Sequence record: OM632671.1
DNA from: Escherichia phage BEU50
Reading direction: 5' to 3' (one strand)
DNA length: 64,000 bases
In this document: positions 28,090-56,980 of the stretch, piece by piece
Layout: each line of letters starts with the position of its first letter
How positions within the stretch are numbered: the stretch's first letter is position 1
The notes under the pieces: generated by a model
Databases searched by the model: none
The model's input: only the letters and a program-made list of their open reading frames with translations
Told to the model about the DNA's origin: nothing
Program-made: the position numbers and the translations under genes

Positions 28090-28377
28090 ATGAAAACCTA
28101 TAAAGAATTTATATCACCTGATGCTAACGTTTCTACTCTAACCGAAGCAACCCTTACTTCCGAAGTTATTAAAGCAAATAAAGGACGTGAGGGTAAACCA
28201 ATGATTGGCCTGGTTGACGGCGAAGAAGTAAAAGGTACTGTTTACTTAGGGGATGGATGGTCTGCTAAGAAAGATGGCGCTACTATTGTTATCTCTCCGG
28301 CTGAAGAGACTGCACTGTTTAAAGCTAAGCATATTTCTGTAGCTCAGCTTAAAATTATTGCAAAAACTCTTCTGTAA
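28090..28377 (+). CDS. internal protein (IPI-like) with N-terminal capsid-targeting sequence
   Basis: 95 aa; begins MKTYKEFI (CTS-like); occupies the ipI position after 57B. Confidence 0.65.
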   Translation: MKTYKEFISPDANVSTLTEATLTSEVIKANKGREGKPMIGLVDGEEVKGTVYLGDGWSAKKDGATIVISPAEETALFKAKHISVAQLKIIAKTLL

Positions 28378-29288: not shown

Positions 29289-29804
29289 ATGAATATTTGT
29301 TTAGGCAGTACAATTCCTAAGGGTTACGTAATTGATGTCACTACTTGGGAAAATGACGGCGACAACTATAAAACCAAAACATTATTTGGTGTGGAAGAGC
29401 ATGAGCTCCAACAGTTTAAATATCTCTTGAAGAAATTTAAGAGTCGTCATTCCAGCACTAAAGCTGAACGTTACTGTGGTAATACACCATTCAGTGATTG
29501 CTCGCTTTTAATCTATGAATACTTGGTTGAAGGGCTGTTCTCAGACCAGCTTTATCCAGAATTCATTAAAAAGGTCTTTGATATTGAAGTCGACCTTGGT
29601 AATAAATCTGAAGAAGACGAATCGCGTGTATTCGACCTGTTCCATGAGAATGGATATTTGGTATCAGAAGGTCTCATTGATATTCTTGGTCATGCTTCTG
29701 AATATTATGATTATGATTTCTTGCGTGTAGTTGAATGTGTTGAATTTGCTTATATTGAAGAAGAAATCGTTTTGCCAACTGTTAAAATGATTGATTTGCT
29801 TTAA
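29289..29804 (+). CDS. hypothetical acidic protein
   Basis: 171 aa ORF. Confidence 0.55.
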   Translation: MNICLGSTIPKGYVIDVTTWENDGDNYKTKTLFGVEEHELQQFKYLLKKFKSRHSSTKAERYCGNTPFSDCSLLIYEYLVEGLFSDQLYPEFIKKVFDIEVDLGNKSEEDESRVFDLFHENGYLVSEGLIDILGHASEYYDYDFLRVVECVEFAYIEEEIVLPTVKMIDLL

Positions 29805-29883
29805 GAATTATGTGTTATTATTAATTCGTACCCTCTATTACCAAAGGTGCTCTAAAGTGCCTTTCATAATAGAAAGTTATTTA

Positions 29884-29957
29884 GGCCCTGTAGCTCAATG
29901 GTTAGCAGCAGTCCCCTCATAAGGGAAAGGTTACCAGTTCGAATCTGGTCTGGGTCA
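29884..29957 (+). tRNA. tRNA with anticodon CAU (Met, or Ile if lysidine-modified)
   Basis: Manually folded cloverleaf: acceptor GGCCCTG / CTGGGTC, anticodon loop CTCATAA, T-arm ACCAG-TTCGAAT-CTGGT; D-stem imperfect. Confidence 0.7.
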
Positions 29958-29963
29958 TATATT

Positions 29964-30040
29964 CGAGGCATAGCTCAATTGTATGGAGCAACGGACTTCT
30001 AATCCGTAGGTTGAAGGTTAGAATCCTTCTGTCTCGACCA
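29964..30040 (+). tRNA. tRNA-Arg (anticodon UCU), CCA encoded
   Basis: Acceptor CGAGGCA / TGTCTCG, anticodon arm ACGGA-CTTCTAA-TCCGT, T-arm GAAGG-TTAGAAT-CCTTC, 3' ACCA; 6 nt after the previous tRNA. Confidence 0.85.
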
Positions 30041-30058
30041 ACTTTAAGTGAGGAAAAT

Positions 30059-30403
30059 ATGAAAGGCAATATTTATCTGGTAGTTCATGATTTAACGTTT
30101 TATTTTAACGAATATGATACAGTTATTTCTCATCGATTGATTAATTCGCTGTATCAGCATGCCGATTACATTTATGTTCAAAATGAATTTGGACATTGGA
30201 AGTTCATTAAAAATCGTTACGGGTTAACTAGTTTTGAATACTTTGACCGTAAAGACCTTTTAAACGAAATCCCATTGCAACATCGATTCCAGAAACGCGA
30301 ATCATTATATTATTGCCGTCATATACCAAACGCCGAATGTGTTAATGAAGCGATTAATCTATGGCGTCGGCGTCGAGAGCAAATTGATGATATGCCAAAA
30401 TAA
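30059..30403 (+). CDS. hypothetical protein
   Basis: ATG after SD gaggaaa; the track ORF 30011 would overlap tRNA-Arg, so the downstream start is used. Confidence 0.5.
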   Translation: MKGNIYLVVHDLTFYFNEYDTVISHRLINSLYQHADYIYVQNEFGHWKFIKNRYGLTSFEYFDRKDLLNEIPLQHRFQKRESLYYCRHIPNAECVNEAINLWRRRREQIDDMPK

Positions 30404-30715
30404 GAAGCCGGGTCGCTACCGGTAAGTCGTCGGACTGATGTTCCCTGAGTAAGGACTGGTCTTAATAAATCTTTACGATTTGTTAATATCCCCTTACATC
30501 ACAGCAGAAACGGCGCACAGAATTATCGATTCGAGGAAATATCTTTGCCGTAAGCCGAGTAGCGTTTTTGACGGAACGTTCGGATATGGTCGAGATATGG
30601 CCTTTTAAAAATATTGAGTAGCGTCAACTGCTTAATAACCGGGTTCGAATCCCGGCGTTTCGTACAAACACTTGCCTTAGCAGGTGGAAACCCCGACAAG
30701 GTTGCCGCAAGGCTT
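30404..30715 (+). ncRNA. non-coding region with tRNA-like T-arm; possible stable small RNA(s) analogous to T4 tRNA-cluster species
   Basis: About 310 nt with no convincing ORF; ACCGGG-TTCGAAT-CCCGG T-arm-like element near 30640-30660; ends at a rho-independent terminator. Confidence 0.3.
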
Positions 30716-30745
30716 AGCCCCTTCCGAAAGGTTGGGGCTTTTTGG
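30716..30745 (+). terminator. rho-independent terminator (repeated element, copy 1)
   Basis: agcccc-ttcc-gaaa-gg-ttggggct hairpin followed by TTTTTGG. Confidence 0.65.
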
Positions 30746-30788
30746 CATAATAATAAATAGATAAGTTAATTAACTTAGGAAAAGCAAC

Positions 30789-31253
30789 ATGAAATCATAC
30801 GCTGAATTTTTGACTGAACAATCTAGTTCAGATGTAAAAGCCGCTGCGATTGCAGCAATTCAAGCAGGTAAATATTCTTACAAAGACGCCTCTGATGAAG
30901 AACGTTTCCGTTTTATTAGAGATTTTAAAGCCGAAGGTTTTACTAATGCTAATACTGTTAGCCGAGTTTTTAAAAGCCTAGCTGCATCAGGTGAATTGTT
31001 CCAGAAAGCTACAGGTAAAGCACCTGCGCCAAAAGCGGACCCTAAAGCAGCTCAAGAAAAAAATATCGCCAAAGGAATTATTTCTAAGTATGAAGCAATT
31101 CTTAAAGAGCTTTTAGTAATCAAAACAGAAGGACAGAAACTGGCACGAGCACATAGCTTCAAAGATAATCCTCACGCTCATAGCCTTGAGTATGTTGAAG
31201 ATATCCAAAAACTTATTAAAGACCGTATCTGGTCTGCTAAACAAATTAAATAA
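30789..31253 (+). CDS. internal-protein-like protein with N-terminal capsid-targeting sequence
   Basis: 154 aa; begins MKSYAEFLTE (CTS with L-x-E); flanked by terminator copies 1 and 2. Confidence 0.6.
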   Translation: MKSYAEFLTEQSSSDVKAAAIAAIQAGKYSYKDASDEERFRFIRDFKAEGFTNANTVSRVFKSLAASGELFQKATGKAPAPKADPKAAQEKNIAKGIISKYEAILKELLVIKTEGQKLARAHSFKDNPHAHSLEYVEDIQKLIKDRIWSAKQIK

Positions 31254-31258
31254 TAGAA

Positions 31259-31290
31259 TGCCCCTTCCTTATGGTTGGGGCTTTTTGGCA
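31259..31290 (+). terminator. rho-independent terminator (repeated element, copy 2, loop variant)
   Basis: gcccc-ttcc-ttat-gg-ttggggc plus T-run; same stem as copy 1. Confidence 0.65.
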
Positions 31291-31319
31291 TCTAGGGCAT
31301 AAAAATATTTCATAAAGAT

Positions 31320-31350
31320 GTTTACTTCTTCTAAGGACATGATACTATAG
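31320..31350 (+). promoter_or_regulatory. early promoter (GTTTAC, 17 nt, TACTAT), PeSL family B
   Basis: GTTTAC 31320-31325, TACTAT 31343-31348; downstream SD agaggag. Confidence 0.6.
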
Positions 31351-31376
31351 ACTTATCAACCACAGAGGAGAATATT

Positions 31377-31682
31377 ATGAGTCTTTACACTGAACTGAAT
31401 AAAAAATCTGAAGAATCTGCTGAAACTATTTTTAAAAACGTGCAAAAGCGTATTTTAGAAAAGATGTATAACACTGCAGCTAAAGGTGAAAAATCTTGCC
31501 GGTTCCCGATGAGGTGTTCTTCCGATTTATGCGCAAATACTATTGAATGGCTGGAAAGTGAAGGTCTTACGGTAGAGAAAAACCCGGCGATTTCTATTGA
31601 CAGTGAATCATATATTAGTATTTCTTGGGATAAACCACGTATGAATGAAGGACACTACAAGTTGTTAAGTTGGAAAAATTAA
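31377..31682 (+). CDS. hypothetical protein
   Basis: 101 aa ORF downstream of an early promoter. Confidence 0.55.
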   Translation: MSLYTELNKKSEESAETIFKNVQKRILEKMYNTAAKGEKSCRFPMRCSSDLCANTIEWLESEGLTVEKNPAISIDSESYISISWDKPRMNEGHYKLLSWKN

Positions 31683-31689
31683 AAATAAT

Positions 31690-31722
31690 GATGTACAAGC
31701 ACCAAGGATGGTGATACTATAG
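31690..31722 (+). promoter_or_regulatory. early promoter, PeSL family C (ccaaggatgg core)
   Basis: atgtacaagcaccaaggatggtgaTACTAT; related to the promoters at 48061, 49117 and 50137. Confidence 0.5.
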
Positions 31723-31750
31723 ACTTATCAACTACAGAGGAGTAAACAAA

Positions 31751-31915
31751 ATGACTACTTTAATTATTTGGTTCGATGAAAATGAAGAAACATACTGTGT
31801 GAATATTGGTGAAAGTCCAATGCCTGAATTTGAATCCTCAGATAAAAACTCTGTTGTATCTTGGGCTGAAGGTTATAAAGCAGCTAAAGGTGACGTTGAA
31901 ATAATTTACATCTAA
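31751..31915 (+). CDS. hypothetical small protein (54 aa)
   Basis: Manually translated ORF MTTLIIWFDENEETY...; SD gaggag; not in the track (<60 aa). Confidence 0.45.
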   Translation: MTTLIIWFDENEETYCVNIGESPMPEFESSDKNSVVSWAEGYKAAKGDVEIIYI

Positions 31916-31961
31916 GTAAGTTTATGTTATAGTAGTCCTATCAAATCAAGAGGAAAACAAA

Positions 31962-32189
31962 ATGGCTAAAGTTAGTATTGATGTCGTTGATTATGAATAC
32001 ACCGAAGAAGTTATTCGCAACCGCCACCCTGAAGTTCGTATCGATTCAGTACAAGATTCCAAGTTCTGGACAACTGAGCTTAATCTGAGCGGCCCTTATG
32101 AAGCTGTTAAGAAGTTCATGGTTGAAGAATACTGCGAAGGCATGCACCCCGAAGACGCCAAGTTTTATGTCAATTTGATTAAAAAATAA
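31962..32189 (+). CDS. hypothetical protein
   Basis: 75 aa ORF after SD agaggaaa. Confidence 0.55.
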   Translation: MAKVSIDVVDYEYTEEVIRNRHPEVRIDSVQDSKFWTTELNLSGPYEAVKKFMVEEYCEGMHPEDAKFYVNLIKK

Positions 32190-32220
32190 TTTACAAACTC
32201 TTGAGAGCAGAGTATAATGC
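32189..32220 (+). promoter_or_regulatory. early promoter with IR around the -10 (PeSL family D)
   Basis: ATTTAC ... gagagca-gagTATAATgctctc; about 50-nt element repeated at 58353-58405. Confidence 0.55.
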
Positions 32221-32259
32221 TCTCGTTGGATAATAAACCACCAATTGAAAGGTAATAAT

Positions 32260-32853
32260 ATGAACACACTGAAGAAACTTGTTGAATTCATCCGCACTAA
32301 ACTGGGTACTGCTATGGCTAAAAATCTGACTGTCGAAGAACAGTATAACGCAGCTGCAGATAAGTTGATTACCCAAATCAAAGAACTAAAAACGGCTTCT
32401 GTTAAATCTATTAATGAAGAAAAACGTATTCGCGAACTTGTTAATGAAAAGAACAAGCAAGCCGCTTCTAAGGAACGTGAAATTCGTAAGCTCCTTGCTG
32501 AAGGACAAGATGTTACTATGCATGCTAAGCTTGGTCTTCTGTATCGTCGAACTGCCGAACAACTTAATACAAAGGCTGACGGGTATGCCGCTATGCGAAT
32601 TGAAATTGCTCGTAAGGTGGTTGAACTTGACGATGCTCGTCAGAACCTGGCAATCAAACTCGAATACATTCGTGAAACTCGAGCAGCCAATGCCCTTGGT
32701 ATCTCTACGGCCGATGATGTAATTGAAATAGCTGCACTGACTAAGGTTGATATCGAAGACACTCTGACTCGTGTTGAAACGTTCAATGGCACTCCAGCCG
32801 GCGTCGAAACCACTTCTGCTGATGTACAAGAATATATTAACTCTTTGAAATAA
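32260..32853 (+). CDS. hypothetical coiled-coil protein
   Basis: 197 aa from ATG after SD aaggtaa; predicted long alpha-helical/coiled-coil sequence. Confidence 0.55.
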
Positions 32854-32902
32854 AATAATACGGAGGACTCCGGTCCTCCTTTTGGATAATAAAGGAGTTA
32901 AC

Positions 32903-33385
32903 ATGCGAAACCAAAATAATGATATTGACTCAATGTTCGAAGAGTTCCGAGATAAGGTAAATCCACCTACGTCTTTAGTTGATTCATTACGATATGTTGC
33001 AACTGGACGTAAATGGTACTGGTCGTCTTCTTATGAGACCACCGAGAAAACGGCTAGCCATAGCAGAAAATCTTTATTAGCCCCAGGTATTATGATTCAT
33101 GATATCGGAGCTATTGCTAAACTAGTTGCAGACCATGATATTAGATTCACCGATTTCGTTGCTCCTACATGGTCTGTTTGTTGTTTAAACACTGAATGGG
33201 AAGCTCCAGATCGTACTCTTCTTCAGTTTGATTGGCAAACATGGCACACTGGTTCTCGTGCAATTAGTAACGGATGGCGTTGGTTCGGACGTGTATCTCG
33301 TAATACAGACCGAGTTAAAAAGATTACCAATGAAATTCGTGTCAATGCCCAAGTTTATCTGGAATTCCCTATGGAAGGTTGGTAA
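32903..33385 (+). CDS. hypothetical protein
   Basis: ATG after SD aaaggag; the track ORF starts at an upstream TTG. Confidence 0.55.
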   Translation: MRNQNNDIDSMFEEFRDKVNPPTSLVDSLRYVATGRKWYWSSSYETTEKTASHSRKSLLAPGIMIHDIGAIAKLVADHDIRFTDFVAPTWSVCCLNTEWEAPDRTLLQFDWQTWHTGSRAISNGWRWFGRVSRNTDRVKKITNEIRVNAQVYLEFPMEGW

Positions 33386-33876
33386 TGATTAACAAAACAT
33401 ATTGGTCTAATATAGACGATGGCGACGAAGGTATTTCGTATTATTCGGTAGATTGGACAGGATGTCCATCCTACTTAGTGAAACATATTTGCCAAGAATT
33501 TAAAATCGACCAGCCAGCAGGTATTATTGTGAACAGATACATTAATGGATATCAACCTATCGATGAAGTAATACGAACAACTCAAGCTGAGCTTGAAAAG
33601 TTTTTCAATAAGTGTCAATGGATAACAGGATGGATTATATTTGTACCGTCGGTATGGTTTTTTAGTACTAAAGTAAGTGCCTTTGCTGTACTAGATATTA
33701 TCGCTATCTTATTAGCATCTACTATCGTAAGTATTATTGGTGGTATTATTGGTGGAGGTACTATAGGCATCATTATTAATCTTGTTAAAAGTAGTTTACA
33801 AGAACATAAAGACAAGATAAAAGCCAAGAATAATGAAGTTGAACGTTTTATTACCGAATGCAGGAATTTGAGATGA
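33385..33876 (+). CDS. hypothetical membrane protein (Gly-rich TM segment IIGGIIGGGTIGIII)
   Basis: ATG overlapping the upstream stop (TAATG); hydrophobic core. Confidence 0.55.
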   Translation: MINKTYWSNIDDGDEGISYYSVDWTGCPSYLVKHICQEFKIDQPAGIIVNRYINGYQPIDEVIRTTQAELEKFFNKCQWITGWIIFVPSVWFFSTKVSAFAVLDIIAILLASTIVSIIGGIIGGGTIGIIINLVKSSLQEHKDKIKAKNNEVERFITECRNLR

Positions 33877-34109
33877 GTATAGCAATTTACATTAAATCAG
33901 AATCATGTGATAGTTATCTGTACACATATGATAAAGATGTGTCAGAAGAAAAAATCAAAGACGACCTTAATATGGACCTTGATATGTTCTGTCCTATTGC
34001 AGATTACAAACTTGCGGTCTCTAATAGTGAAAGTCCATCTAAAGAAACGCGCATTGAAGAATTTATGTCCGAATTAATGGCCAAATCATGGGACCGAGAT
34101 GATGAGTAA
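33873..34109 (+). CDS. hypothetical acidic protein
   Basis: ATGA overlap with the upstream stop; alternative start at 33858. Confidence 0.5.
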   Translation: MSIAIYIKSESCDSYLYTYDKDVSEEKIKDDLNMDLDMFCPIADYKLAVSNSESPSKETRIEEFMSELMAKSWDRDDE

Positions 34110-34557
34110 GAAAAATAAAGTGAAAGAACTATCAGCCGGTATTATTTTCCTTACCGAAGATAAAGAATTATTCATGGGGCGTGTAACTGGTTCTCGTCCT
34201 AAAGGTGCATTAGCTCATCGGTGGGATATTCCTAAAGGCCGTGTCGAACCTGGCGAATCTCCTATCGAAGCCGCTATTCGTGAATGCGAAGAAGAAACTG
34301 GGTTTACACAATATGACCCTGCCTTCCTGAAAGACCTAGGCGAACATCATTACTCAGACAATAAGAATATTCATCTGTTCCTATATACCATCCCTGTAGA
34401 GCACGAGCAATTCAGAAACAGTGTTTGTAATTCCTATCATACATTCCCAGACGGACGACAGATTCCTGAATTTGATGCATTCGCTTTAATTAAACCTTCT
34501 CAATGGGAATATGTAATGGGCAAATCATTATATAAGGTGCTCACCACCCTCCTATAA
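34099..34557 (+). CDS. nudE: Nudix hydrolase NudE (e.1)
   Basis: Nudix box GRVEPGESPIEAAIRECEEETG; 152 aa; immediately upstream of lysozyme e as in T4. Confidence 0.9.
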   Translation: MMSKKNKVKELSAGIIFLTEDKELFMGRVTGSRPKGALAHRWDIPKGRVEPGESPIEAAIRECEEETGFTQYDPAFLKDLGEHHYSDNKNIHLFLYTIPVEHEQFRNSVCNSYHTFPDGRQIPEFDAFALIKPSQWEYVMGKSLYKVLTTLL

Positions 34558-34591
34558 GTAATAAATACCTCCTATAAACGTGGGAGGTATT

Positions 34592-35080
34592 ATGAATATA
34601 TTTGAAATGCTTCGTAATGACGAAGGTCTTAGACTGACTTTATACAAAGACACCGAAGGCTTTTGGACGATTGGCATAGGCCATTTAGTAACAAAGAACC
34701 CGTCTTTAGCCGTAGCTAAAGCTGAACTTGACAGAATGATCGGACGTAAATGCAACGGTACAATTACCCTTGATGAGGCTGAAAAGCTATTTAATGAAGA
34801 CGTTGATAAAGCCGTTCGCGGAATCTTGGGTAATGCTAAACTTAAACCGGTATATGATTCTTTAGATGCGGTTCGTCGTTGTGCATTGGTCAATATGGTC
34901 TTCCAAATGGGTGTAGCAGGCGTCGCCGGTTTTACTAATTCTCTTCGTATGCTTCAACAGAAACGTTGGGATGAAGCGGCAGTAAATCTAGCCCAATCTA
35001 AATGGTATCGTCAGACACCTAATCGCGCGAAACGTGTAATCTCAACATTTAAAACAGGAACTTGGAAAGCGTATATATGA
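34592..35080 (+). CDS. e: endolysin (T4 lysozyme)
   Basis: [32 protein letters not shown]... near-identical to recalled T4 lysozyme. Confidence 0.97.
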
Positions 35081-35358
35081 AAACATATAGTGAATTTTTA
35101 TCAGAATCTATTCTTAACGAAGCTACTGACACATTTGCAACTAAGCTAGGTGCAGCTTTGGTTGAAGCTGAAAGTCTATTAGCACGTATTTCTGAACTTG
35201 CTAGTAAGATAGATACTCGCAAATTTGAACGTACCAGCGATATCGCTAAGCTTGAAGCTTTGTTACGTATGTGCGATAAACCGGAAGAAATCGCTAAGAA
35301 CGGCTCGTTAATGAAACAACGTCTTGAAAAATATATTTCAGGCGCTTCAGAAAAATAG
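35077..35358 (+). CDS. internal-protein-like protein with capsid-targeting sequence
   Basis: 93 aa; begins [10 protein letters not shown]; ATGA overlap with e stop; sits between e and denV where T4 carries ipIII/ipII. Confidence 0.6.
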
Positions 35359-35359
35359 T

Positions 35360-35390
35360 GTTTACTTCCTCCAAGGACTTTGATACTATA
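35360..35390 (+). promoter_or_regulatory. early promoter (GTTTAC, 18 nt, TACTAT), PeSL family B, with IR cctccaag / cttggagg
   Basis: GTTTAC 35360-35365; right IR arm contains the denV SD ggagg. Confidence 0.6.
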
Positions 35391-35416
35391 CATTCATCAA
35401 CTACTTGGAGGAAATT

Positions 35417-35830
35417 ATGACTCGTATCAATTTAACACTTGTTTCTGAACTGACTGACCAACATCTTATGGCTGAGTATCGTGAATTACCACGCGTATTT
35501 GGTGCAGTCCGTAAACATGTTCAAAACGGTAAACGTGTAAAGGATTTTAAAATCTCTCCAACATTTATCTTAGGCACAGGTCACGTAACATTCTTTTACG
35601 ACAAACTCGAATTTTTACGTTTACGTCAAATCGAGCTAATCGCTGAATGTTTGAAACGTGGTTTCAAAATCAAGGACACGACAGTCCAGGATATTTCCGA
35701 CATCCCTGCCGAATTTCGTAATAATTATGTCCCGTCCGAAGCGTCCATTGCGATAAGTCAAGCACGCTTAGATGAAAAAATTGCTCAACGTCCGACTTGG
35801 TACAAATACTATGGTAAATCAATTTACTAA
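35417..35830 (+). CDS. denV: endonuclease V (pyrimidine dimer DNA glycosylase)
   Basis: [35 protein letters not shown]... near-identical to recalled T4 DenV. Confidence 0.95.
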
Positions 35831-35836
35831 GGAAAA

Positions 35837-36097
35837 ATGAAAATGTATCAAGAATTTATCATTGAAGCAGATGCCAAAGGTCCTAAATTTAAAGTTAAAG
35901 CTTTCATTGGTGATGCGGAAGACTTTGGCTCATTAAAACGTAATGGGTATTCTTTCTTAGGTGGCGATGGTAAAGAAATCAACACCTATGCAAAACGTAG
36001 TGAAATTGCTTATGTTGTAGCAAGTCCTAAAGTAGATGTTGACGATATTGGATATGATTTTAACAACTTCGGAATTATTTCTGGCGGTAAAGCTTAA
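35837..36097 (+). CDS. internal-protein-like protein with capsid-targeting sequence
   Basis: 86 aa; begins MKMYQEFIIE. Confidence 0.55.
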   Translation: MKMYQEFIIEADAKGPKFKVKAFIGDAEDFGSLKRNGYSFLGGDGKEINTYAKRSEIAYVVASPKVDVDDIGYDFNNFGIISGGKA

Positions 36098-36100
36098 ATT

Positions 36101-36131
36101 GTTTACGCTTAAGTATTAATATGGTATAATT
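36101..36131 (+). promoter_or_regulatory. early promoter (GTTTAC, 18 nt, extended -10 TGgTATAAT)
   Basis: GTTTAC 36101-36106, TATAAT 36125-36130. Confidence 0.65.
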
Positions 36132-36160
36132 ACTCTATCAAAACAAACAAGGAAACAAAA

Positions 36161-36475
36161 ATGAAAACGTATAAAGAATTTATTGCAGAATCCGCCAACC
36201 AACGCGTTGAAGGTGGTTATATTTGGATTGAACAAGTTGAGCCACCGAGCCGCACTTCTACAGGTAAATGGAAAATTACTGTTGACGGTCCTGGTGGTAA
36301 ACGTAGGACTCTTAAAGAAATTAATGGGTACTATGAAGAAGCTCTTTCGGATGCAGGAACTTACATGATGCAAATCATGATTAAAAACCCTGAAAACCGT
36401 TTTGCAGCTAAAGTCTTCCGTCGTATTGGTAATAAACTTTATGATGCATACTCTAAAAACTTCCCTAAAGAATAA
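36161..36475 (+). CDS. internal-protein-like protein with capsid-targeting sequence
   Basis: 104 aa; begins MKTYKEFIAE. Confidence 0.6.
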   Translation: MKTYKEFIAESANQRVEGGYIWIEQVEPPSRTSTGKWKITVDGPGGKRRTLKEINGYYEEALSDAGTYMMQIMIKNPENRFAAKVFRRIGNKLYDAYSKNFPKE

Positions 36476-36500
36476 CATAAATTAAAACAATAGGAACAAA

Positions 36501-36830
36501 ATGAAAACATATCAGGAGTTTATCACTGAAGTTACATTATCTGCGGAACAGAAAGCTGCTATCGAAGAAGGTAAAAATCCCAAAGTAACATACAAAGTAA
36601 ATAGTAAAGGCGTTTTTGATGGCTTGGTTCAAGACCCTGAATTGAAAAAAGCTCTTTCTAAAACTAATGCGTACTTTGCTCCTAAATTTAACACAGCCGG
36701 TGTACTTATTGGATTGGATGTATTCAACTCTAAAGGTGTTCTATCTAATGCCTTTGGTTATGCCGCTAACAAAATTACCAAAGCCGCATGGGAATCCAAT
36801 ACCAAACAAGCTCAAAAGCCTAGAGTATAA
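36501..36830 (+). CDS. internal-protein-like protein with capsid-targeting sequence
   Basis: 109 aa; begins MKTYQEFITE. Confidence 0.6.
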   Translation: MKTYQEFITEVTLSAEQKAAIEEGKNPKVTYKVNSKGVFDGLVQDPELKKALSKTNAYFAPKFNTAGVLIGLDVFNSKGVLSNAFGYAANKITKAAWESNTKQAQKPRV

Positions 36831-37003
36831 TTCTTGCCTAATAAAGGGAAACGCAACCTCTCCTCATGAACGTCGAGTCCTCTGAGTGATGTACCTTTTC
36901 CAACCTGTAATAAGGTCGAGCGCAATGCGGTAATGGGTTTACATAGCGAGTCGAAGGACCTAACATGTGCCACGGAATGGCCCCAACCTAAAAGAGAAAC
37001 TAA

Positions 37004-37543
37004 ATGAGAACATTTTTAACTGGACCTTATCTATCCCTGATGAATGCTTTTACACACCATTCTGATGCTAGAGTAGAAGAAATTTGTAAGAACGGTTATA
37101 TCCCACCGTTTGAAGACGTACTCAAGCAGTACTGTACACTTCGTTTAGACGGCGGCAGACAATCAGGTAAATCGACCGCAGTAACTAATTTTGCTGCTAA
37201 TTGGCTGTATGACGGTGGAACAGTTATTGTTCTTTCTAATACTTCAGCTTACGCTAAAATTTCTGCAAATAACATTAAAAAGGAATTTTCTCGTTATTCT
37301 AGCGATGATATTCGATTCCGTTTATTTACTGATTCTGTTCGTAGTTTTATTGGCAATGAAGGTTCTAAATTCCGTGGATTAACGCTTTCTCGTATTCTGT
37401 ATATAATTGACGAGCCTATTAAAGCTCCTGATATGGATAAGATTTACAATGTCCACATTAAAACAGTACAGCACTGCTGCAAAAGCAAATATTGCATCGG
37501 CGGTAATGCTCGTCCTCAATTTTTTGTGATTGGAATGCAATGA
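37004..37543 (+). CDS. hypothetical P-loop NTPase
   Basis: Walker A GGRQSGKST, Walker B-like ILYIIDEP; preceded by about 165 nt without an ORF. Confidence 0.55.
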   Translation: MRTFLTGPYLSLMNAFTHHSDARVEEICKNGYIPPFEDVLKQYCTLRLDGGRQSGKSTAVTNFAANWLYDGGTVIVLSNTSAYAKISANNIKKEFSRYSSDDIRFRLFTDSVRSFIGNEGSKFRGLTLSRILYIIDEPIKAPDMDKIYNVHIKTVQHCCKSKYCIGGNARPQFFVIGMQ

Positions 37544-37848
37544 TGACCACTATTGAAGTTTTTGAGTATTGTTATAACAGCCCAGTATGCAATAAAAGGG
37601 CTCTTGTAGAAAATTATGAGATTTACCATTTTAAACCTAAACGATATCGTTTGACTAAAGGTCCGTTCGCAGGGCAGCAGGTTCTTTGTACTGCTCCTAA
37701 TGCACGGTTGATGACTAGTATTCCGCATTTCAAAATGGAATTTATTGATGGGCCATTTAAGGGATTAATCACTCAAAGTTTAATGGCGTTTAATTCCGAC
37801 CCATTTTTGATTAAAGAAAAATCTTGGATAAATTTATTTTCTAATTGA
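37540..37848 (+). CDS. hypothetical protein
   Basis: 102 aa ORF, start overlaps the upstream stop. Confidence 0.5.
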   Translation: MMTTIEVFEYCYNSPVCNKRALVENYEIYHFKPKRYRLTKGPFAGQQVLCTAPNARLMTSIPHFKMEFIDGPFKGLITQSLMAFNSDPFLIKEKSWINLFSN

Positions 37849-37854
37849 GGTTAT

Positions 37855-38217
37855 ATGAAAGCATATCAAATTCTTGAAGGTGCACATAAAGGCACTATTT
37901 ATTTTGAAGACAGTACTCAAGCCCGGATTATTGTCTCTAAGACTTTTAAAGAAGACGCTATTGTAGACCCGGAAATTTTCTACGGTTTGCATGCTCGTGA
38001 AATTGAAATTGAACATCAACCTAAAGTTAAAATTGAAGGTGGTCAACACCTGAACGTTAACGTTCTGCGTCGTGAAACTCTGGAAGATGCAGTTAAGCAT
38101 CCGGAAAAATATCCGCAGCTGACCATCCGTGTATCCGGATATGCAGTTCGCTTTAACTCTCTGACTCCGGAACAGCAGCGCGACGTTATCGCTCGTACCT
38201 TTACTGAGAGTCTATAA
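37855..38217 (+). CDS. grcA: autonomous glycyl radical cofactor (GrcA/YfiD-like; T4 Y06I-type)
   Basis: C-terminal glycyl-radical motif [29 protein letters not shown]; C-terminal about 60 aa match recalled E. coli GrcA; CTG/CGT-rich codons in 38040-38217. Confidence 0.85.
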
Positions 38218-38441
38218 TGGCTAAATTGATTATAGAAGGGTCTGAAGATGTTTTAAAATGTTTTGCCGCCTGGTTTAGTTGCTCAGGCGAGCAATCATTC
38301 ATTGAAGCATTTAGAATGGGTGATATTACTGGAAACTATCCGACAACTGATATCACTGTACATGGATATGGTATTAATGAGCCTATCCAATTGGTCGAAT
38401 ATGACCTTGCCACCGATGAGGAAATTCCTTATGTCGATTGA
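38217..38441 (+). CDS. hypothetical protein
   Basis: 74 aa ORF, ATGA-coupled to the grcA stop. Confidence 0.5.
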   Translation: MAKLIIEGSEDVLKCFAAWFSCSGEQSFIEAFRMGDITGNYPTTDITVHGYGINEPIQLVEYDLATDEEIPYVD

Positions 38442-38697
38442 AGACATCAAAGGCTACAAGCCGCATACCGATGATAAAATCGGTAAAGTGAACGCTATTA
38501 AAGATGCTGAAGTCCGTCTTGGATTGATGTTTGATGCTCTGATTGAAGAAGCATATATCTTGAAAGAAAATGAAACAGAGCAACAAACCAAAGAAGATAT
38601 GGATGCAGTGCAGGCTCTTAAGTATGCTAAGCAACATCTAAAAGAAGCCAGCATGTGGGCATGTCGTGCGGTATTTCGACCTGAGGAAAAATACTAA
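38431..38697 (+). CDS. hypothetical protein
   Basis: ATG at 38431 in frame with the track ORF 38263..38697; overlaps the upstream ORF end. Confidence 0.45.
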   Translation: MSIEDIKGYKPHTDDKIGKVNAIKDAEVRLGLMFDALIEEAYILKENETEQQTKEDMDAVQALKYAKQHLKEASMWACRAVFRPEEKY

Positions 38698-38912
38698 TGG
38701 CTTCTACTATTACTGGGTTATTGGACTTCCAAGAAAAGGTCAACAAAATTTGTAGTGAATACTTAAAGTATCTTGAAGAAGACCTTGAAGATTGTAAGGA
38801 AGAAGGCGAAGAAGACTATGCTGACCAGCGTCGCCGCCAAATCGAAGAGATGAGGCATTTCGCCAATATGGTATCTAAAGAATCTTGGGCTTTAACTCCG
38901 TTTTATCAATAA
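38697..38912 (+). CDS. hypothetical acidic protein
   Basis: 71 aa ORF. Confidence 0.5.
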   Translation: MASTITGLLDFQEKVNKICSEYLKYLEEDLEDCKEEGEEDYADQRRRQIEEMRHFANMVSKESWALTPFYQ

Positions 38913-38916
38913 AGTA

Positions 38917-38946
38917 GTTTACTTCTCCTCTAGTTGTGTTACTATA
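38917..38946 (+). promoter_or_regulatory. early promoter (GTTTAC, 17 nt, TACTAT), PeSL family B, with 12-bp perfect IR whose right arm carries the regB SD
   Basis: IR ctcctctagttg ... caactagaggag flanks the -10. Confidence 0.65.
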
Positions 38947-38973
38947 GACCTGTCAACTAGAGGAGAAATCAAA

Positions 38974-39432
38974 ATGACTATCAATTCGGAAGTTTTTATC
39001 CGCCGTAATAAACTCCGTCGAATCTTTGAAACGGAGTTCCGCAAAATAAATGCCAGTATAAAAGACGCTGCAAAGTCTCTTGGACTACCAGGCTTTCATA
39101 TCAAGTATTCTCAACATCTCTTAGATCGTGCTATCCAGAGAGAAATAGATGAGAATTACGTTTTTGAATTATTTCGTAAAGTAAAAAATCATGTTAAAGA
39201 AGTTGCAGAATTTTTATCAATGCCGGCACGTCCAGATGTTGATGAAGATTTTGTCGAAGGTGTCGAATATCGCCCGGGCCGTTTAGAAATAACTGATGGA
39301 AATCTTTGGTTGGGACTTACAGTTTGTCGCGAAAATCCGGCATTCAAAATGAAGACTCTTCAATGCAGAATGGCTATTATTAACAGTAAACGACTACCAG
39401 GAAAAGCTTCTAAAGCAGTGATTAAAATCTAG
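38974..39432 (+). CDS. regB: endoribonuclease RegB
   Basis: MTINSEVFIRRNKLRR...HIKYSQHLLDRAIQREIDENYVFELF...QCRMAIINSKRLPGKASKAVIK matches recalled T4 RegB. Confidence 0.88.
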   Translation: MTINSEVFIRRNKLRRIFETEFRKINASIKDAAKSLGLPGFHIKYSQHLLDRAIQREIDENYVFELFRKVKNHVKEVAEFLSMPARPDVDEDFVEGVEYRPGRLEITDGNLWLGLTVCRENPAFKMKTLQCRMAIINSKRLPGKASKAVIKI

Positions 39433-39440
39433 AGGTAAAC

Positions 39441-39983
39441 ATGAGAAAAGCACTACTCGCTGGTCTATTTGCTCTTTCATTATCAGCACATAGCTCCGAG
39501 CATACTTTTAGTAATGTCCAACTCGATAACTTGAATTATGCTTATCAGTTTGGGGAACAGTTTTCTAAGGACGGAAAATTTAAAACGCATGAAAATATGC
39601 ATAAGAAAGGACTTGGATACATAATGGCCGCAATACTATGGCAGGAATCATCTGCCGGTATTAATCTTAAAGATAAGAAAGGTCACCATGCGTATGGAAT
39701 GTTCCAAAATTATCTACCAACAATGAGGGCAAGAATTAACCAGCTTGGTTATAATATGACTGATGCCCAAATTAAGAAAATGCTATCTAAGCGGTCTAAT
39801 TCAACCAGATGGGCTTATATCGAATTTTCTTATTGGTTAAATATACATAACGGGGATATAAGAAAAGCTATATCCTCATATAATGCGGGATGGAAGACAA
39901 GCGCTGGAAGTAAATATGCTTCTGAAGTCCTAGAAAAGGCTAATTACCTTAAATCAAATAAACTACTGGAAATAAAAGAATGA
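39441..39983 (+). CDS. predicted periplasmic lytic-transglycosylase-like protein
   Basis: N-terminal signal peptide MRKALLAGLFALSLSAHS; SLT-like motifs WQESSAG, GMFQ, SYNAGW. Confidence 0.6.
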   Translation: MRKALLAGLFALSLSAHSSEHTFSNVQLDNLNYAYQFGEQFSKDGKFKTHENMHKKGLGYIMAAILWQESSAGINLKDKKGHHAYGMFQNYLPTMRARINQLGYNMTDAQIKKMLSKRSNSTRWAYIEFSYWLNIHNGDIRKAISSYNAGWKTSAGSKYASEVLEKANYLKSNKLLEIKE

Positions 39984-40327
39984 CCAAAATGTTGGCTTTA
40001 ATAGTTGGCTTGGTTTCATTTAACGCTCTTGCTAATACTACATATACTGATGTAACGGAGTATACAAACAGAACGGCGTCTGATTATTGTGGTAAAAGTC
40101 AAGAGTGTAAAGTAGATTTTTCACAAAAATTGTTATATGCGTATAAAGACGGAGAAAAAGATGGGGCGTCTAGTAGGTTCAAGGCGTCTACCTTAATTAA
40201 AAGATACTATAAAAAATGGCAAATATTAGAATGCTCTGTGGCGGAACCTAAAGATAAGGCAGCATGCAATTCTATGGTGGACCGTCTAGTTGACTCTTAT
40301 ACTAGAGGACTTGCAGCAAGTGATTAA
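39980..40327 (+). CDS. predicted secreted protein (signal peptide, 4 Cys)
   Basis: MTKMLALIVGLVSFNALA signal-like N-terminus. Confidence 0.55.
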   Translation: MTKMLALIVGLVSFNALANTTYTDVTEYTNRTASDYCGKSQECKVDFSQKLLYAYKDGEKDGASSRFKASTLIKRYYKKWQILECSVAEPKDKAACNSMVDRLVDSYTRGLAASD

Positions 40328-40784
40328 AAACTATATCAAGGGCGATATTGTCGCCCTGTTTTCTAAAGGTAATAATATTGCTCATGGGTGTAATTGTTTT
40401 CATACAATGGGCGCCGGTGTAGCAGGCCAATTAGCAAAGGCTTATCCAAAAATTCTGGAAGCCGATAAACTTCAAACCGAATTCGGAGACAAGTCTAAAC
40501 TCGGGACTTATTCGGTTTATGAAAAATATTTTAAGACCCATAAAGCTTATTGCTTTAATCTTTATACACAGTTTGAGCCGGGACCTAATTTTGAGTACTC
40601 TGCTTTAATGAATTGTATAATAGAATTAAATGAATTCGGAAAGAATAAGATAATAAAGCCTGTAATTTATATGCCTAGAATTGGTGCAGGTATTGGTGGT
40701 GGAAACTGGGATATCATCGAAGAGATTTTAGATACGTATTCCACTAAACTAGAAATTGTGATTGTTGATTGGGAACCTAAATGA
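40320..40784 (+). CDS. macrodomain protein, TARG1/DarG-like (predicted ADP-ribose processing)
   Basis: Motifs YIKGDIVALFSKGNNIAHGCNCFHTMGAGVAGQL and MPRIGAGIGGGNWDIIEEI align with recalled human TARG1/OARD1; start uncertain (GTG 40320 after SD gagga, or TTG 40290). Confidence 0.7.
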   Translation: MIKNYIKGDIVALFSKGNNIAHGCNCFHTMGAGVAGQLAKAYPKILEADKLQTEFGDKSKLGTYSVYEKYFKTHKAYCFNLYTQFEPGPNFEYSALMNCIIELNEFGKNKIIKPVIYMPRIGAGIGGGNWDIIEEILDTYSTKLEIVIVDWEPK

Positions 40785-40963
40785 AATTAACTAAAGAAGA
40801 GAAAGCTAAATTGTTCGAACTTATCCATGACCTATTGGATGAGCAAGCAGCCACCAATGCGTATGATGAATATGCTCCTTTAACAGATGAAGAATATCAA
40901 GCATTGATGGAATCATTTGACAGGAAAGAACAAGAACTCATTGACTACGTGAATTCACTATAA
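40781..40963 (+). CDS. hypothetical acidic protein
   Basis: 60 aa ORF. Confidence 0.5.
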   Translation: MKLTKEEKAKLFELIHDLLDEQAATNAYDEYAPLTDEEYQALMESFDRKEQELIDYVNSL

Positions 40964-40972
40964 GGGGCTCTT

Positions 40973-41554
40973 ATGGCTAGTTTAATTTTTACATATGCCG
41001 CTATGAACGCCGGTAAGTCTGCTTCATTACTTACTGCCGCACATAACTATAAAGAACGTGGCATGGGTGTATTAGTTCTTAAACCGGCTATTGATACTCG
41101 TGATTCAAAAGGTGAAATAGTCTCTCGTATTGGTATTCGTCAGGATGCCAATATAATTACAAAAGACATGGATATCTTTGAATTCTATAAATGGGCTGCA
41201 GCACAAAAGGATATTCACTGTGTATTTGTTGACGAAGCTCAGTTCTTAACTACTGAAAAGGTGTATCAACTTAGTCGTATTGTTGACGTATACAATGTGC
41301 CGGTAATGGCATATGGACTACGAACAGATTTTAAAGGTAATCTATTTGAAGGTTCTCAAGCATTAATGGCTATTGCCGATAAGCTTGTTGAACTTAAAGG
41401 TGTCTGTCATTGTGGTAAAAAGGCCACAATGGTAGCTAGAGTCACGGAAGACGGACTTCCAATTACAGATGGCAGTCAAATTGAAATTGGTGATACTGAT
41501 AGATATGTGTCATTATGCCGGAAGCATTGGAATGATTTGACAGGATTGTTATAA
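40973..41554 (+). CDS. tk: thymidine kinase
   Basis: P-loop AMNAGKS; VDEAQF; C-terminal Zn-binding cysteines; 193 aa as in T4 Tk. Confidence 0.93.
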   Translation: MASLIFTYAAMNAGKSASLLTAAHNYKERGMGVLVLKPAIDTRDSKGEIVSRIGIRQDANIITKDMDIFEFYKWAAAQKDIHCVFVDEAQFLTTEKVYQLSRIVDVYNVPVMAYGLRTDFKGNLFEGSQALMAIADKLVELKGVCHCGKKATMVARVTEDGLPITDGSQIEIGDTDRYVSLCRKHWNDLTGLL

Positions 41555-41581
41555 ATACTAATATCTAACCAAGAGGTATAT

Positions 41582-41794
41582 ATGCAGCAATTAAACGAAA
41601 GACAACTTCGTAATCTTACTGTAACCCAATTGGATGAAATCCGAAGAGAATTAGGACATTCTATTTCTCATTTAAACGAGGATATCCGTCAAACTGGTTC
41701 TAAAGCTGATTATACACGCAAGCGCAAGCTGGAAAAATACCTCACAGATGTTAAGGCCGTCCAAAGGCGAAAAATAAATACTGGCCAAAATTAA
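41582..41794 (+). CDS. hypothetical protein (rI.-1 position)
   Basis: 70 aa ORF between tk and rI. Confidence 0.5.
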
Positions 41795-41806
41795 CAGGAG
41801 GCCTAT

Positions 41807-42109
41807 ATGGCCTTAAGAGCGATAGCTGTCATGGCGATGCTGGGGTTTTTTGCAGCAACAACTCCTATCGTTGGTACTGCATATGTTGACCCATATTTTG
41901 ATAACTTTATGGAATCAGGGATTAAAAACGTATATACTTTGTTTGAAATTCAAAATGTCGAGAATTCTGAAAAATTCTATAAGTATATGGCAAAGCATTA
42001 CAAAAATAGCCCCTGTGATGATGCATTTGAATGTCACGAACAAGGCATAAAAACTGCCAGACAATTTGCCGAGTTCATGAAAATAAAATTAGAGCCTACA
42101 TCTATCTAA
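41807..42109 (+). CDS. rI: lysis inhibition regulator RI (antiholin)
   Basis: Signal-anchor plus VDPYFDNFMESGIKNVYTLFE...SPCDDAFEC... matches recalled T4 RI. Confidence 0.85.
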   Translation: MALRAIAVMAMLGFFAATTPIVGTAYVDPYFDNFMESGIKNVYTLFEIQNVENSEKFYKYMAKHYKNSPCDDAFECHEQGIKTARQFAEFMKIKLEPTSI

Positions 42110-42115
42110 TTTACT

Positions 42116-42148
42116 AGCCCCTTCCGAAAGGTTGGGGCTTTTTGGCAT
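42116..42148 (+). terminator. rho-independent terminator (repeated element, copy 3; identical to copy 1)
   Basis: tagccccttccgaaaggttggggctttttggcat identical to 30715-30748. Confidence 0.65.
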
Positions 42149-42154
42149 CTATCA

Positions 42155-42184
42155 GTTTACTTCTCCTCAGGTTGTGTTATAGTA
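42155..42184 (+). promoter_or_regulatory. early promoter (GTTTAC, 17 nt, TATAGT), PeSL family B
   Basis: GTTTAC 42155-42160; IR tctcctc ... gaggaga with the right arm as SD. Confidence 0.6.
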
Positions 42185-42210
42185 AACCTTACTTACTAGA
42201 GGAGAACGTT

Positions 42211-42390
42211 ATGACACGTAAAGAAAAAATTTCTAAGTTAATGTTTTTGATTGAAGAGTACGCTAATGCGGTATCTGATTGGGAAAATGCTCATGGTTGC
42301 GAAGATGGAGACATCGACATTAACAGAGCTATGAAAAAGATGGCTGATGCCCACACCGAATTGCAAATGTATGTTAACGAGATTATGTGA
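42211..42390 (+). CDS. hypothetical small protein
   Basis: 59 aa from ATG after SD gaggag. Confidence 0.5.
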   Translation: MTRKEKISKLMFLIEEYANAVSDWENAHGCEDGDIDINRAMKKMADAHTELQMYVNEIM

Positions 42391-43409: not shown

Positions 43410-43886
43410 ATGATTATCAATGAAAACTCTTGGCACTTTAAAATTTATGCCGCGTTCAATAGTACATGGAATCGTCCGAAAACGTTATGTGCTTATTTTT
43501 GGAAAACGTTTCTCCCGGTATTGGCTGCTTCAATTATTGGATTTGCGATTTTAGCAGCAGTCACAATCATTGGCCAGGAAATTTTAACTAAATTCTTTGT
43601 TTTTAGCAGTCTATGGACATTAGTTCTGGCTTCAATTGGTGTAGGCATTTTAATGGTAGCAGTCATGGCTTTTATTGCTACCGGGTTGGTAATTGGTCCG
43701 TCTTGGTTGTTAGACAAATATAACGACAGAAAATATTATAAAGAAATTGAGCTCATTGCACAAAACCAAGAACGAATTAAAAATGGACTTGAGCCTATTG
43801 AACGTAAGAAATCGATTATCGTTGAATTTTTAAAAGCTCGTAAAGCTAAAGTGTGTCCTACTCTTGAATACAAGCCAGGCAAATGA
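43410..43886 (+). CDS. hypothetical membrane protein
   Basis: Hydrophobic TM segments; 158 aa. Confidence 0.55.
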   Translation: MIINENSWHFKIYAAFNSTWNRPKTLCAYFWKTFLPVLAASIIGFAILAAVTIIGQEILTKFFVFSSLWTLVLASIGVGILMVAVMAFIATGLVIGPSWLLDKYNDRKYYKEIELIAQNQERIKNGLEPIERKKSIIVEFLKARKAKVCPTLEYKPGK

Positions 43887-44665
43887 ATTATATCAAATGT
43901 TATGATGCAATAATTCAACGAGGAAAACTTAGAGGCAGTGATAAGTCTGAGTTGAATTATTATACTGAATCCCATCACATAATCCCTTCATGTATTGGAG
44001 GGAGTGATGACCCGAGTAATAAAGTTTTATTGACTGCCAGGGAACATTTTATCGCTCATTGGTTATTATCAAAAATTCACCCAAACTCTGAAGGATTGAT
44101 TTACGCTTACTGGGCGTTCTATAATTTAGGCGAAGATGCTTTAGGACGAAATCTTAAATTAACCTCAAGAGGCTATAAAGACGTAAGGGAAAAGTTTTCA
44201 GAAATTCACTCTAATAGAATGAAAGATATATGGGAATCACAAGAATATCGTGATAAGCGTTCAGCGACCATGAGCCTCCCTGAGATAAAGGCTAAAATGT
44301 CAGATTCTCAAATAGAGGCACAGAATAGACCTGAAGTTAAAGCAAAAATATCTACTGCTATCAAAGAGGCCTTTAAGAGAGATGATGTTAAAGAACGGCA
44401 TTCAAGAGCTGTTAAAAAGGCCCTAGATAATCCAGAAACTAAAAAGAGACAGTCTGAAGCGTCTAAAGCTAGACAACGAACTGGTAAACACTGGGAAGAT
44501 TATGATATGCTTTACGAACTTTGGATTAAATTGAATCGACCTAAGCGTGGGGCTTTCGGAACCCATATTAGTAAAATGGGTTATCCTAAATCAAATTACC
44601 AACGCTTAATATTACAGTTCATTGAAGATTATGAAAGGAAAGTGAATAATGAAAACGATTGTTAA
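43883..44665 (+). mobile_element. free-standing HNH homing endonuclease (Mob-like) with C-terminal repeated DNA-binding motifs
   Basis: HNH core ESHHIIPSCIGGSDDPSNKVLLTAREHFIAHWLL; C-terminus LYELWIKLNRPK...GYP shared with the HEG at 62324. Confidence 0.8.
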
Positions 44666-45973: not shown

Positions 45974-45999
45974 GGGGGTTAAAATATTTTTAAAAAGTA

Positions 46000-46029
46000 G
46001 TGTACATGCTTTTAGGATATGTTATTATA
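46000..46029 (+). promoter_or_regulatory. early promoter (GTGTAC -35, TATTAT -10), PeSL family A variant
   Basis: Downstream 5' UTR aaacgaaatgagtaaattggag resembles the 28420 copy. Confidence 0.5.
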
Positions 46030-46066
46030 GACCTATCGAAACGAAATGAGTAAATTGGAGAATAAA

Positions 46067-47185: not shown

Positions 47186-47473
47186 ATGGATTTTATGCAA
47201 AAAATTAAAGCCGCAGTCGAACTCTATGCTCATCGTATGGTTAGTTCTACAATGCAATATAGCGAGGAGGTTCGCCAGGACTCTTCCTTGAAAGGAAAAA
47301 CTAGAGCCTTAATTACCTTAGACCGTCTACAAAAGAATGCCATAGAGATGCTCCAGTACGACAAGGGTGTATATAAGAAAGAACAGGAAGAGAAACTTAA
47401 ATCTGAAAAATTACAAAAAATCCCGAAGTCTGTTTGGTTCAGTGGAAAAAATACCGAAAAAAGTTTCTTTTAG
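47186..47473 (+). CDS. hypothetical protein
   Basis: 95 aa from ATG after SD agagga. Confidence 0.5.
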   Translation: MDFMQKIKAAVELYAHRMVSSTMQYSEEVRQDSSLKGKTRALITLDRLQKNAIEMLQYDKGVYKKEQEEKLKSEKLQKIPKSVWFSGKNTEKSFF

Positions 47474-47475
47474 TT

Positions 47476-47505
47476 GTTTACAAGGTCTATGGTTATGTTA
47501 TTATA
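47476..47505 (+). promoter_or_regulatory. early promoter (GTTTAC, 17 nt, TATTAT) with IR aggtctat / atagacct
   Basis: GTTTAC 47476-47481. Confidence 0.6.
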
Positions 47506-47531
47506 GACCTATCAACTACTGGAGGTAAAAC

Positions 47532-56838: not shown

Positions 56839-56923
56839 ATCTCATTTCTAATATAATCCATTGGAATCTTCACTTCACTATCTCCTTGTGCCCCTCTCAA
56901 ATCGAAAATATTTTCATAAAACA

Positions 56924-56953
56924 GTTTACATCCTCAATAGACGTGTTAAGATT
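56924..56953 (+). promoter_or_regulatory. early promoter (GTTTAC, 17 nt, TAAGAT)
   Basis: GTTTAC 56924-56929. Confidence 0.45.
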
Positions 56954-56980
56954 AAACCATCTACTATAGAGGAAAATAAA

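Follow-up and report, generated by a model that had tools for sequence, protein, structure and literature searches.

Near-identical terminator repeats as probable edges of exchangeable single-gene cassettes in the T-even Escherichia phage BEU50

We analysed a stretch of 64,000 nucleotides from Escherichia phage BEU50 (sequence record OM632671.1; the whole stretch is called the window) and recovered three copies of a GC-rich terminator element: two that flank a single internal-protein-like gene behind the small-RNA gene rnaC, and one that follows the antiholin gene rI. The window is that of a Mosigvirus, an RB69-like T-even phage. The near-identical terminator copies are very likely the edges of single-gene cassettes that are gained, lost and swapped by recombination between copies. 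The repeats, their positions and the natural haplotypes (cassette present, absent, replaced or in tandem, with both crossover classes) can be read directly from the genomes. The process itself is already known, as shuffling mediated by promoter-early stem-loops (PeSLs) and as internal-protein locus polymorphism, and the differences found here are differences of degree. Coordinates refer to the window, and all features that are named lie on its given (+) strand.

The element, TAGCCCCTTCCGAAAGGTTGGGGCTTTTTGGCAT, occurs as an exact 34-mer at two sites, 30715-30748 (copy 1) and 42115-42148 (copy 3), and no match to it was obtained in 100 dinucleotide-preserving shuffles. Copy 2, at 31258-31291, equals copy 1 in register at 29 of the 34 positions: TA has become AT at the 5' end, before the stem, and the loop has changed from GAAA to TTAT; the stem and the U-run are kept. 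The original prediction had listed these three copies, including the kept stem and altered loop of the second, and its description stands except for two positions: the copy behind rI ends at 42148 and not at 42149, and the variant copy lies at 31258-31291 and not at 31259-31292. An origin of the TTAT loop by inversion could be ruled out, the reverse complement of GAAA being TTTC. A relaxed stem and U-run pattern yielded exactly one extra copy (31260-31286, i.e. copy 2), and beyond the three copies none was found on either strand of the window. The two bases TA before the stem are common to copies 1 and 3, and copies 2 and 3 have GGCATCTA in common after the U-run, which extends three bases beyond the repeat.

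Each copy folds as GCCCCUUCC-NNNN-GGUUGGGGC followed by U5, that is, as a hairpin with a nine-position stem (seven G-C pairs and a 2x2 U.U internal loop) and a loop of four nucleotides. The hairpins of copies 1, 2 and 3 are located at 30717-30738 (GAAA loop), 31260-31281 (TTAT) and 42117-42138 (GAAA), the U-runs at 30739-30743, 31282-31286 and 42139-42143, and the folding energies are -16.0, -14.9 and -16.0 kcal/mol, respectively. The built-in terminator scan missed the element owing to the internal loop, and direct folding was used instead. All three copies have a GC-rich hairpin with the U-run directly 3' of it on the transcribed strand, and all three close a transcription unit: copy 1 lies 50 nucleotides past rnaC, copy 2 five nucleotides past the stop codon of the gene at 30789-31253 and copy 3 six nucleotides past that of rI. 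We predict them to be intrinsic (rho-independent) terminators that would act as such in vivo; terminators at these places were also predicted by the annotators of the SA79RD and fPS-2 records. The closest genome, that of phage a20, has the three terminator places too, and an assembly artefact is ruled out, since dozens of genomes that were sequenced independently have the same arrangement. Hairpins of the shape GCCCC-NN-CC-loop-GGTTGGGGC-T(n) also recur in many contigs from phages with no relation to the T-even group: a pattern scan of IMG/VR gave 87 loci, against some 0.1-0.2 expected by chance (a rough estimate for which the collection size was assumed), mostly in unrelated phage contigs and with about ten T-even loci of use. 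In these hairpins NN is TT, GG, GA, TG or AG, which gives U.U mismatches or G.U/A-U pairs.

Copies 1 and 2 lie 543 bp apart and, as had been claimed, bracket the open reading frame (ORF) at 30789-31253, which encodes a protein of 154 amino acids that starts with MKSYAEFLTE. The protein matched phrog_2280 (no assigned function; 1e-53), had no match in Pfam and gave no meaningful relative in a sequence search of the PDB. Its start aligns with the leaders of five other ORFs of the internal-protein (IP) type in the window, at 28090, 35077, 35837, 36161 and 36501, the first of which is an IPI according to Pfam, and it conforms to the leader of the T4 internal proteins (MKTYQEFIAE-like, ending in Glu). 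The label 'internal-protein-like' that had been given to the gene holds at the level of this N-terminal motif and, by analogy, the product may be packaged and injected like the T4 internal proteins. Altogether six ORFs at three separate loci of the window carry a leader of the form MK[TSM]YxEF[LI]xE, and the first ~26 nucleotides of such ORFs, the gene at 30789 excluded, make up the DNA repeat family D5. At its 5' end the cassette contains AATAAATA (30752-30759), which agrees in seven of eight positions with the T4 late-promoter consensus TATAAATA; the exact TATAAATA is found right after the U-run in the cassettes of fPS-2 (the Tequatrovirus orthologue) and LF82-1, and AATAAATA or TATAAATA is the putative late promoter of the cassette. 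In the leader of the cassette after copy 1 (30747-30760) the length of an AAT run varies, with GGCAT(AAT)2AAATAG in the window and one or three AAT in other contigs, and this alters the spacing from the terminator to the late-promoter-like AATAAATA.

The cassette lies behind rnaC (species 1 RNA; 30526-30664), the last gene of a tRNA/small-RNA transcription unit in which it is preceded by rnaD (species 2 RNA; 30400-30518). Both genes were placed by alignment to annotated T4-type records (137/139 identity to the rnaC of RB55 and 136/139 to the rnaC annotation of ATK47; 105/117 to the rnaD annotated in RB55), and an Rfam scan of 29800-31400 returned two tRNAs only, with no model matching rnaC or rnaD. 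The region 30400-31700 is 100% identical to that of Escherichia phage a20 and 96-99% identical to that of many other Mosigvirus isolates. About 630-770 records carry the rnaC region, and 469 phage records contain the cassette gene, of which 71 match at ≥90% identity (Mosigvirus) and 398 at ~75% (Tequatrovirus); it is absent from T4. A count of empty and filled sites by short junction queries was not clean, as the two pieces of a filled site merge, and single-piece matches were read individually. The terminator was found at the same place after rnaC in the T4-type phage RB55, in RB69, in fPS-2 and in VR20, and T4 possesses just one copy of it.

Several states of this site were encountered among the relatives. 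Where it is filled by allele A of the cassette gene, a terminator copy is present on both sides in all 11 genomes examined, from Mosigvirus as well as Tequatrovirus; the second copy is intact in nine of these and has a degenerate 5' arm, with the same 3' arm and U-run, in the other two. The stems co-vary within a genome, both being GA (paired) in Tequatrovirus and both TT (mismatched) in Mosigvirus. The site is empty in RB55, which lacks the cassette gene and has a single terminator, TAGCCCCGACCGAAAGGTTGGGGCTTTTTGGTATCTAAGCC (TAGCCCCGACCGAAAGGTTGGGGCTTTTTGGTATCTA), whose stem is paired throughout (-20.3 kcal/mol) and behind which e.8 is located. It is also empty in five Mosigvirus isolates, which have a single hybrid terminator with the left flank of copy 1 (…gcaaggctta) and the right flank of copy 2 (ggyatctagggcataaaaatatttcataaag…TTTACT). 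The hybrid has the copy-2 loop TTAT in G2285 and PHB12 and the copy-1 loop GAAA in ECO111 5-P, NBG1 and LF82-4, so that crossovers are found on either side of the loop. Judged from their sequences, these two classes are what an exchange between copies 1 and 2 should yield, depending on the side of the loop on which the crossover falls; for the GAAA class, a state that predates the insertion is another possibility, but the TTAT class appears to be explained only by exchange with copy 2.

The cassette is replaced in RB69 by a divergent allele (B) of the same PHROG, which starts right after copy 1 (MKTYAEFLTE…), is split into ORF149c/148c and ends in an unrelated terminator, and in LF82-1 by a third allele (C; MYTFNEFLAE…, 208 amino acids) that ends in a UUCG hairpin. 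The leader is present on both alleles. Three contigs have a tandem array of allele A, the terminator and then allele B, and the replacements and tandem arrays all begin directly after the same terminator. Indels also occur just downstream, where e.8 stands past copy 2 in phage SF and another gene in OLB35. The gene and its repeats are thus clearly not invariant across relatives, and the suggestion of the original prediction that the direct repeats form a route for gain or loss is supported by the present (the 469 records), absent (RB55 and the five hybrids) and replaced (RB69 and LF82-1) states.

Two further observations were made at this site. LF82-1 and LF82-4 share their host strain, source and location, but the former has the allele C cassette and the latter the solo GAAA terminator with a right flank of the copy-2 type. 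The Mosigvirus NRG-P0074 (PQ480333; 3548-6900) apparently has, between ipI and nudE, neither the rnaC terminator nor the cassette: the annotation of this interval lists no tRNA features, anchor and terminator scans found nothing in it, it spans ~3 kb versus ~5.7 kb in the window, and its genes, one of which encodes a 2OG-Fe(II) oxygenase, do not match the SA79RD and RB69 genes by length. NRG-P0074 retains the solo terminator past rI.

Copy 3 follows rI (41807-42109; Pfam PF24205, E = 4e-24, and annotations in relatives) as a solo terminator, and its site is a second cassette site of the same kind that is empty in BEU50; the original prediction was silent on this, as it was on the published T4-type mechanism. 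In LF82-1, rI is followed by the terminator, TATAAATA, a DUF7338 gene (185 amino acids), the same terminator again, and then the early promoter and the DUF7438 gene that stand behind copy 3 in the window. The DUF7338 gene was recovered at ≥95% identity from 23 records, its placement at the rI site being read in LF82-1 only. The Dhakavirus vB_EcoM_VR20 contains a gene of the DUF7338 family (76% amino-acid identity) directly after an identical rnaC terminator, so that, with the placements in VR20 and LF82-1 taken together, a single terminator sequence borders this gene at two loci and in two genera. In RB55 the corresponding slot contains rI.-1, an unrelated UUCG terminator and an early promoter. 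Among phages whose 400-nucleotide flanks are 96-99.5% identical to those of the window, the loop at the rI site is GAAA, TTAT or TTAC; the difference involves three of the four bases and is directed toward the copy-2 state, and this pattern points to exchange between copies rather than point mutation. Phage a20 (OQ067374) has at 1443-1569, corresponding to 42135-42261, a 127-bp tandem duplication that is not present in the window. The duplication starts exactly at the 3' arm GGGGC, ends inside the DUF7438 gene and yields an orphan half-terminator and a second promoter; either a genuine rearrangement or a mistake in assembly may lie behind it.

We propose the following course of events. The three copies would have one origin, namely the terminator by which T-even phages close the tRNA/rnaD/rnaC unit. 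They are indicated to be related by descent, and not by convergence, since their identity continues past the stem and the U-run on both sides (with TA upstream and GGCAT(CTA) downstream) and since RB55 has TAGCCCCGACCGAAAGGTTGGGGCTTTTTGGTATCTA at the rnaC site. Each terminator would insulate a small transcription unit, and the near-identical direct repeats would offer a substrate for exchange by the recombination and replication machinery of the phage. Exchange between copies 1 and 2 would then remove the cassette, which comprises the late-type promoter, a ribosome-binding site, the internal-protein-like gene and one of the terminators, and leave one hybrid terminator, and such deletion-type products are seen in natural isolates. 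The reverse reaction, or exchange with a co-infecting relative, would install or replace a cassette and leave the neighbouring transcription undisturbed. By analogy with other T4-type systems, the exchange is presumably homologous recombination rather than replication slippage, and it may proceed through circular intermediates.

Several points weigh against this proposal. The Mosigvirus hairpin, with its two U.U mismatches, is weaker than that of T4 (-16.0 vs -20.3 kcal/mol), and a homology of 34 nucleotides that is broken by a differing loop is short. The 3' terminators of alleles B and C are unrelated to the repeat, and consequently not every exchange used two copies of the element. The direction, gain or loss, is legible from the sequences for the solo copies with a TTAT loop only. 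Finally, base-by-base reading covered only some 25 genomes, and the larger counts derive from BLAST summaries.

A dedicated sequence-specific mechanism, integron-like or homing-like, which would use the GCCCC...GGGGC hairpin as a recognition site for a phage endonuclease or recombinase, or for a structure-specific nuclease acting on a cruciform, was considered and appears improbable to us. It would account for the bounding of the same gene family by the same terminator at different loci in different genera and for the exact start of the a20 duplication at the 3' arm GGGGC, and the deletions at GGGC motifs of Mosig et al. 1998, as far as they are cited in PMC2839356, fit it too. However, no recombinase or endonuclease gene was found in or beside the cassettes by ORF, PHROG and Pfam analysis: where an integron-like system would bring a dedicated gene, the cassettes consist of a single small gene without a nuclease or recombinase domain. 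The two crossover classes and the variable junction positions are moreover as predicted for general homologous exchange, and T4-type recombination is known to work on short homologies, less than 50 bp being sufficient (PMC2839356). A wider version of the idea, in which the rnaC-type terminator is a portable junction that carries late-promoter cassettes (IP alleles and DUF7338) across loci and T-even genera, perhaps with a phage-encoded factor that recognises its hairpin or GGGC motif, and thus a specialised exchange site for injected anti-defence proteins, is speculative and we regard it as doubtful.

Still less credible is that the copies are independent look-alike terminators under selection without a role in rearrangement, the cassette variation then being due to unrelated illegitimate events. 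The motif GCCCCNNCC-loop-GGTTGGGGC-T(n) is indeed common in unrelated phage contigs (the IMG/VR loci above) and alleles B and C finish in different terminators, but the identity runs past the functional stem and U-run, the five solo terminators are exact hybrids of copies 1 and 2 of both crossover classes, loop variants are common to both loci though the flanks are nearly identical, and the left junction of every cassette is at the end of the same U-run. T4 messages frequently end in tetraloop hairpins of the GNRA and UUCG types. That the hairpins of the element serve mainly to stabilise or process RNA 3' ends (shielding those of rnaC and of mRNAs from exonucleases), and that the repeats are by-products of cassette duplication, would agree with this frequency, with the UUCG examples in LF82-1 and RB55 and with the position of copy 1 after a stable small RNA, but it is most improbable as an alternative, since a U-run stands directly past each hairpin, promoters restart past copies 2 and 3 in a terminator-promoter insulator layout, and a stabilising role is compatible with one in recombination and does not replace it.

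Recombination between terminator copies, our preferred explanation, closely resembles the PeSL systems of T4-type phages (Arbiol et al. 2010, PMC2839356; Comeau et al. 2014, PMC4122927). For the PeSLs of RB49 and phi1, termination and promoter activity, recombination and the formation of mini-circles have been shown experimentally (PMC2839356), and in T4 and PST the layout consists of a stem-loop, an AT-rich stretch, -35/-10, a ribosome-binding site and ATG (PMC4122927). Like PeSLs, the terminator copies occur repeatedly in hyperplastic regions, stand beside small genes that are not essential, and mark places of indels and replacements among close relatives, as is seen at both the rnaC and the rI site. 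The layout itself is found at copy 2, with a T4-type early promoter (GTTTAC ... TACTAT) at 31320-31348, an AT-rich region upstream of it and ATG at 31377, and at copy 3, with a T4-type early promoter recovered by the promoter scan (GTTTACT, 16 nucleotides, TATAGT; 42155-42183, 12 nucleotides past the U-run) and ATG at 42211. The systems differ in that: i) the homology here is a GC-rich terminator of 34-37 nucleotides and not the promoter part; ii) an early promoter is missing at copy 1, and the cassettes have a late-type promoter (TATAAATA or AATAAATA) right after the U-run; and iii) there are only three copies of the family in this genome.

The polymorphism of the IP loci of T-even phages (Repoila et al. 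1994, as summarised in PMC2839356 and PMC4122927) is similar in that the number, order and identity of the genes vary, the N-terminal leader is conserved, and short repeated regulatory brackets are, according to these summaries, thought to mediate the shuffling. In T4 two IP loci have been described, ipI and ipII/ipIII (PMC12373910), whereas the cassette site described here has rnaC on one side and e.8/ORF146c on the other, and T4 has no cassette in it; the element is a GC-rich terminator, compared to an AT-rich stem-loop that, in the same summaries, overlaps the early promoter at the IP loci. The short-direct-repeat deletions of T4 (Singer et al. 1982; Albertini et al. 1982; Mosig et al. 1998, as cited in PMC2839356 and PMC4122927) likewise lose the DNA between the repeats and leave one hybrid repeat, with, as far as those citations go, inverted repeats of the GCCC/GGGC type at the endpoints. 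Those are laboratory deletions at arbitrary repeats, in contrast to the functional regulatory repeat found here and to natural isolates with gain, loss and replacement.

The further gene content of the region is that of a T-even phage. Upstream of the cassette are located ipI (28090; Pfam IPI_T4), homologues of tRNA.4/.3/.2 between ipI and the tRNA genes, and the genes for tRNA-Met (29884) and tRNA-Arg (29964). Downstream of copy 2 follow an RB69ORF146c-like gene (31377-31682; phrog_18312) and, up to 40973, among others nudE, e (lysozyme), further IP genes and denV; tk starts at 40973 and the DUF7438 gene (Pfam PF24219, E = 1e-16) occupies 42211-42390. The window also contains repeat families of 36-63 nucleotides that represent T4-type early promoters with their AT-rich upstream regions, the usual promoter parts of PeSLs (31301-31357, 38898-38954, 42154-42189, 45981-46037, 47457-47513 and 56905-56961); the promoter behind copy 2 belongs to families D1 and D4 and that behind copy 3 to D4, and these repeats are far commoner in the window than the terminator repeat. 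About 1.7 kb past copy 3, an ORF for a protein of 260 amino acids (43883-44665) encodes an H-H...N...H stretch that recalls HNH homing endonucleases; it is a candidate only and had no Pfam match at E ≤ 0.001.

The accepted picture of T4-type genome plasticity is unchanged by these findings, to which they add a cassette site beyond the two IP loci described for T4 (PMC12373910). The locus is an unusually clean natural record, in which the filled, the empty (in both crossover classes), the replaced and the tandem state are connected by one 34-nucleotide junction, and the same junction is reused 11 kb away at a second locus, and in another genus. It also indicates that a terminator with a late promoter can play the role that was earlier assigned to early-promoter stem-loops. 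The internal proteins of T-even phages are injected together with the DNA, and Ip1-3 of T4 each inhibit a different restriction enzyme of the GmrSD type (PMC12373910); because these proteins disarm restriction enzymes, a site at which such genes are swapped bears on the evolution of host range.

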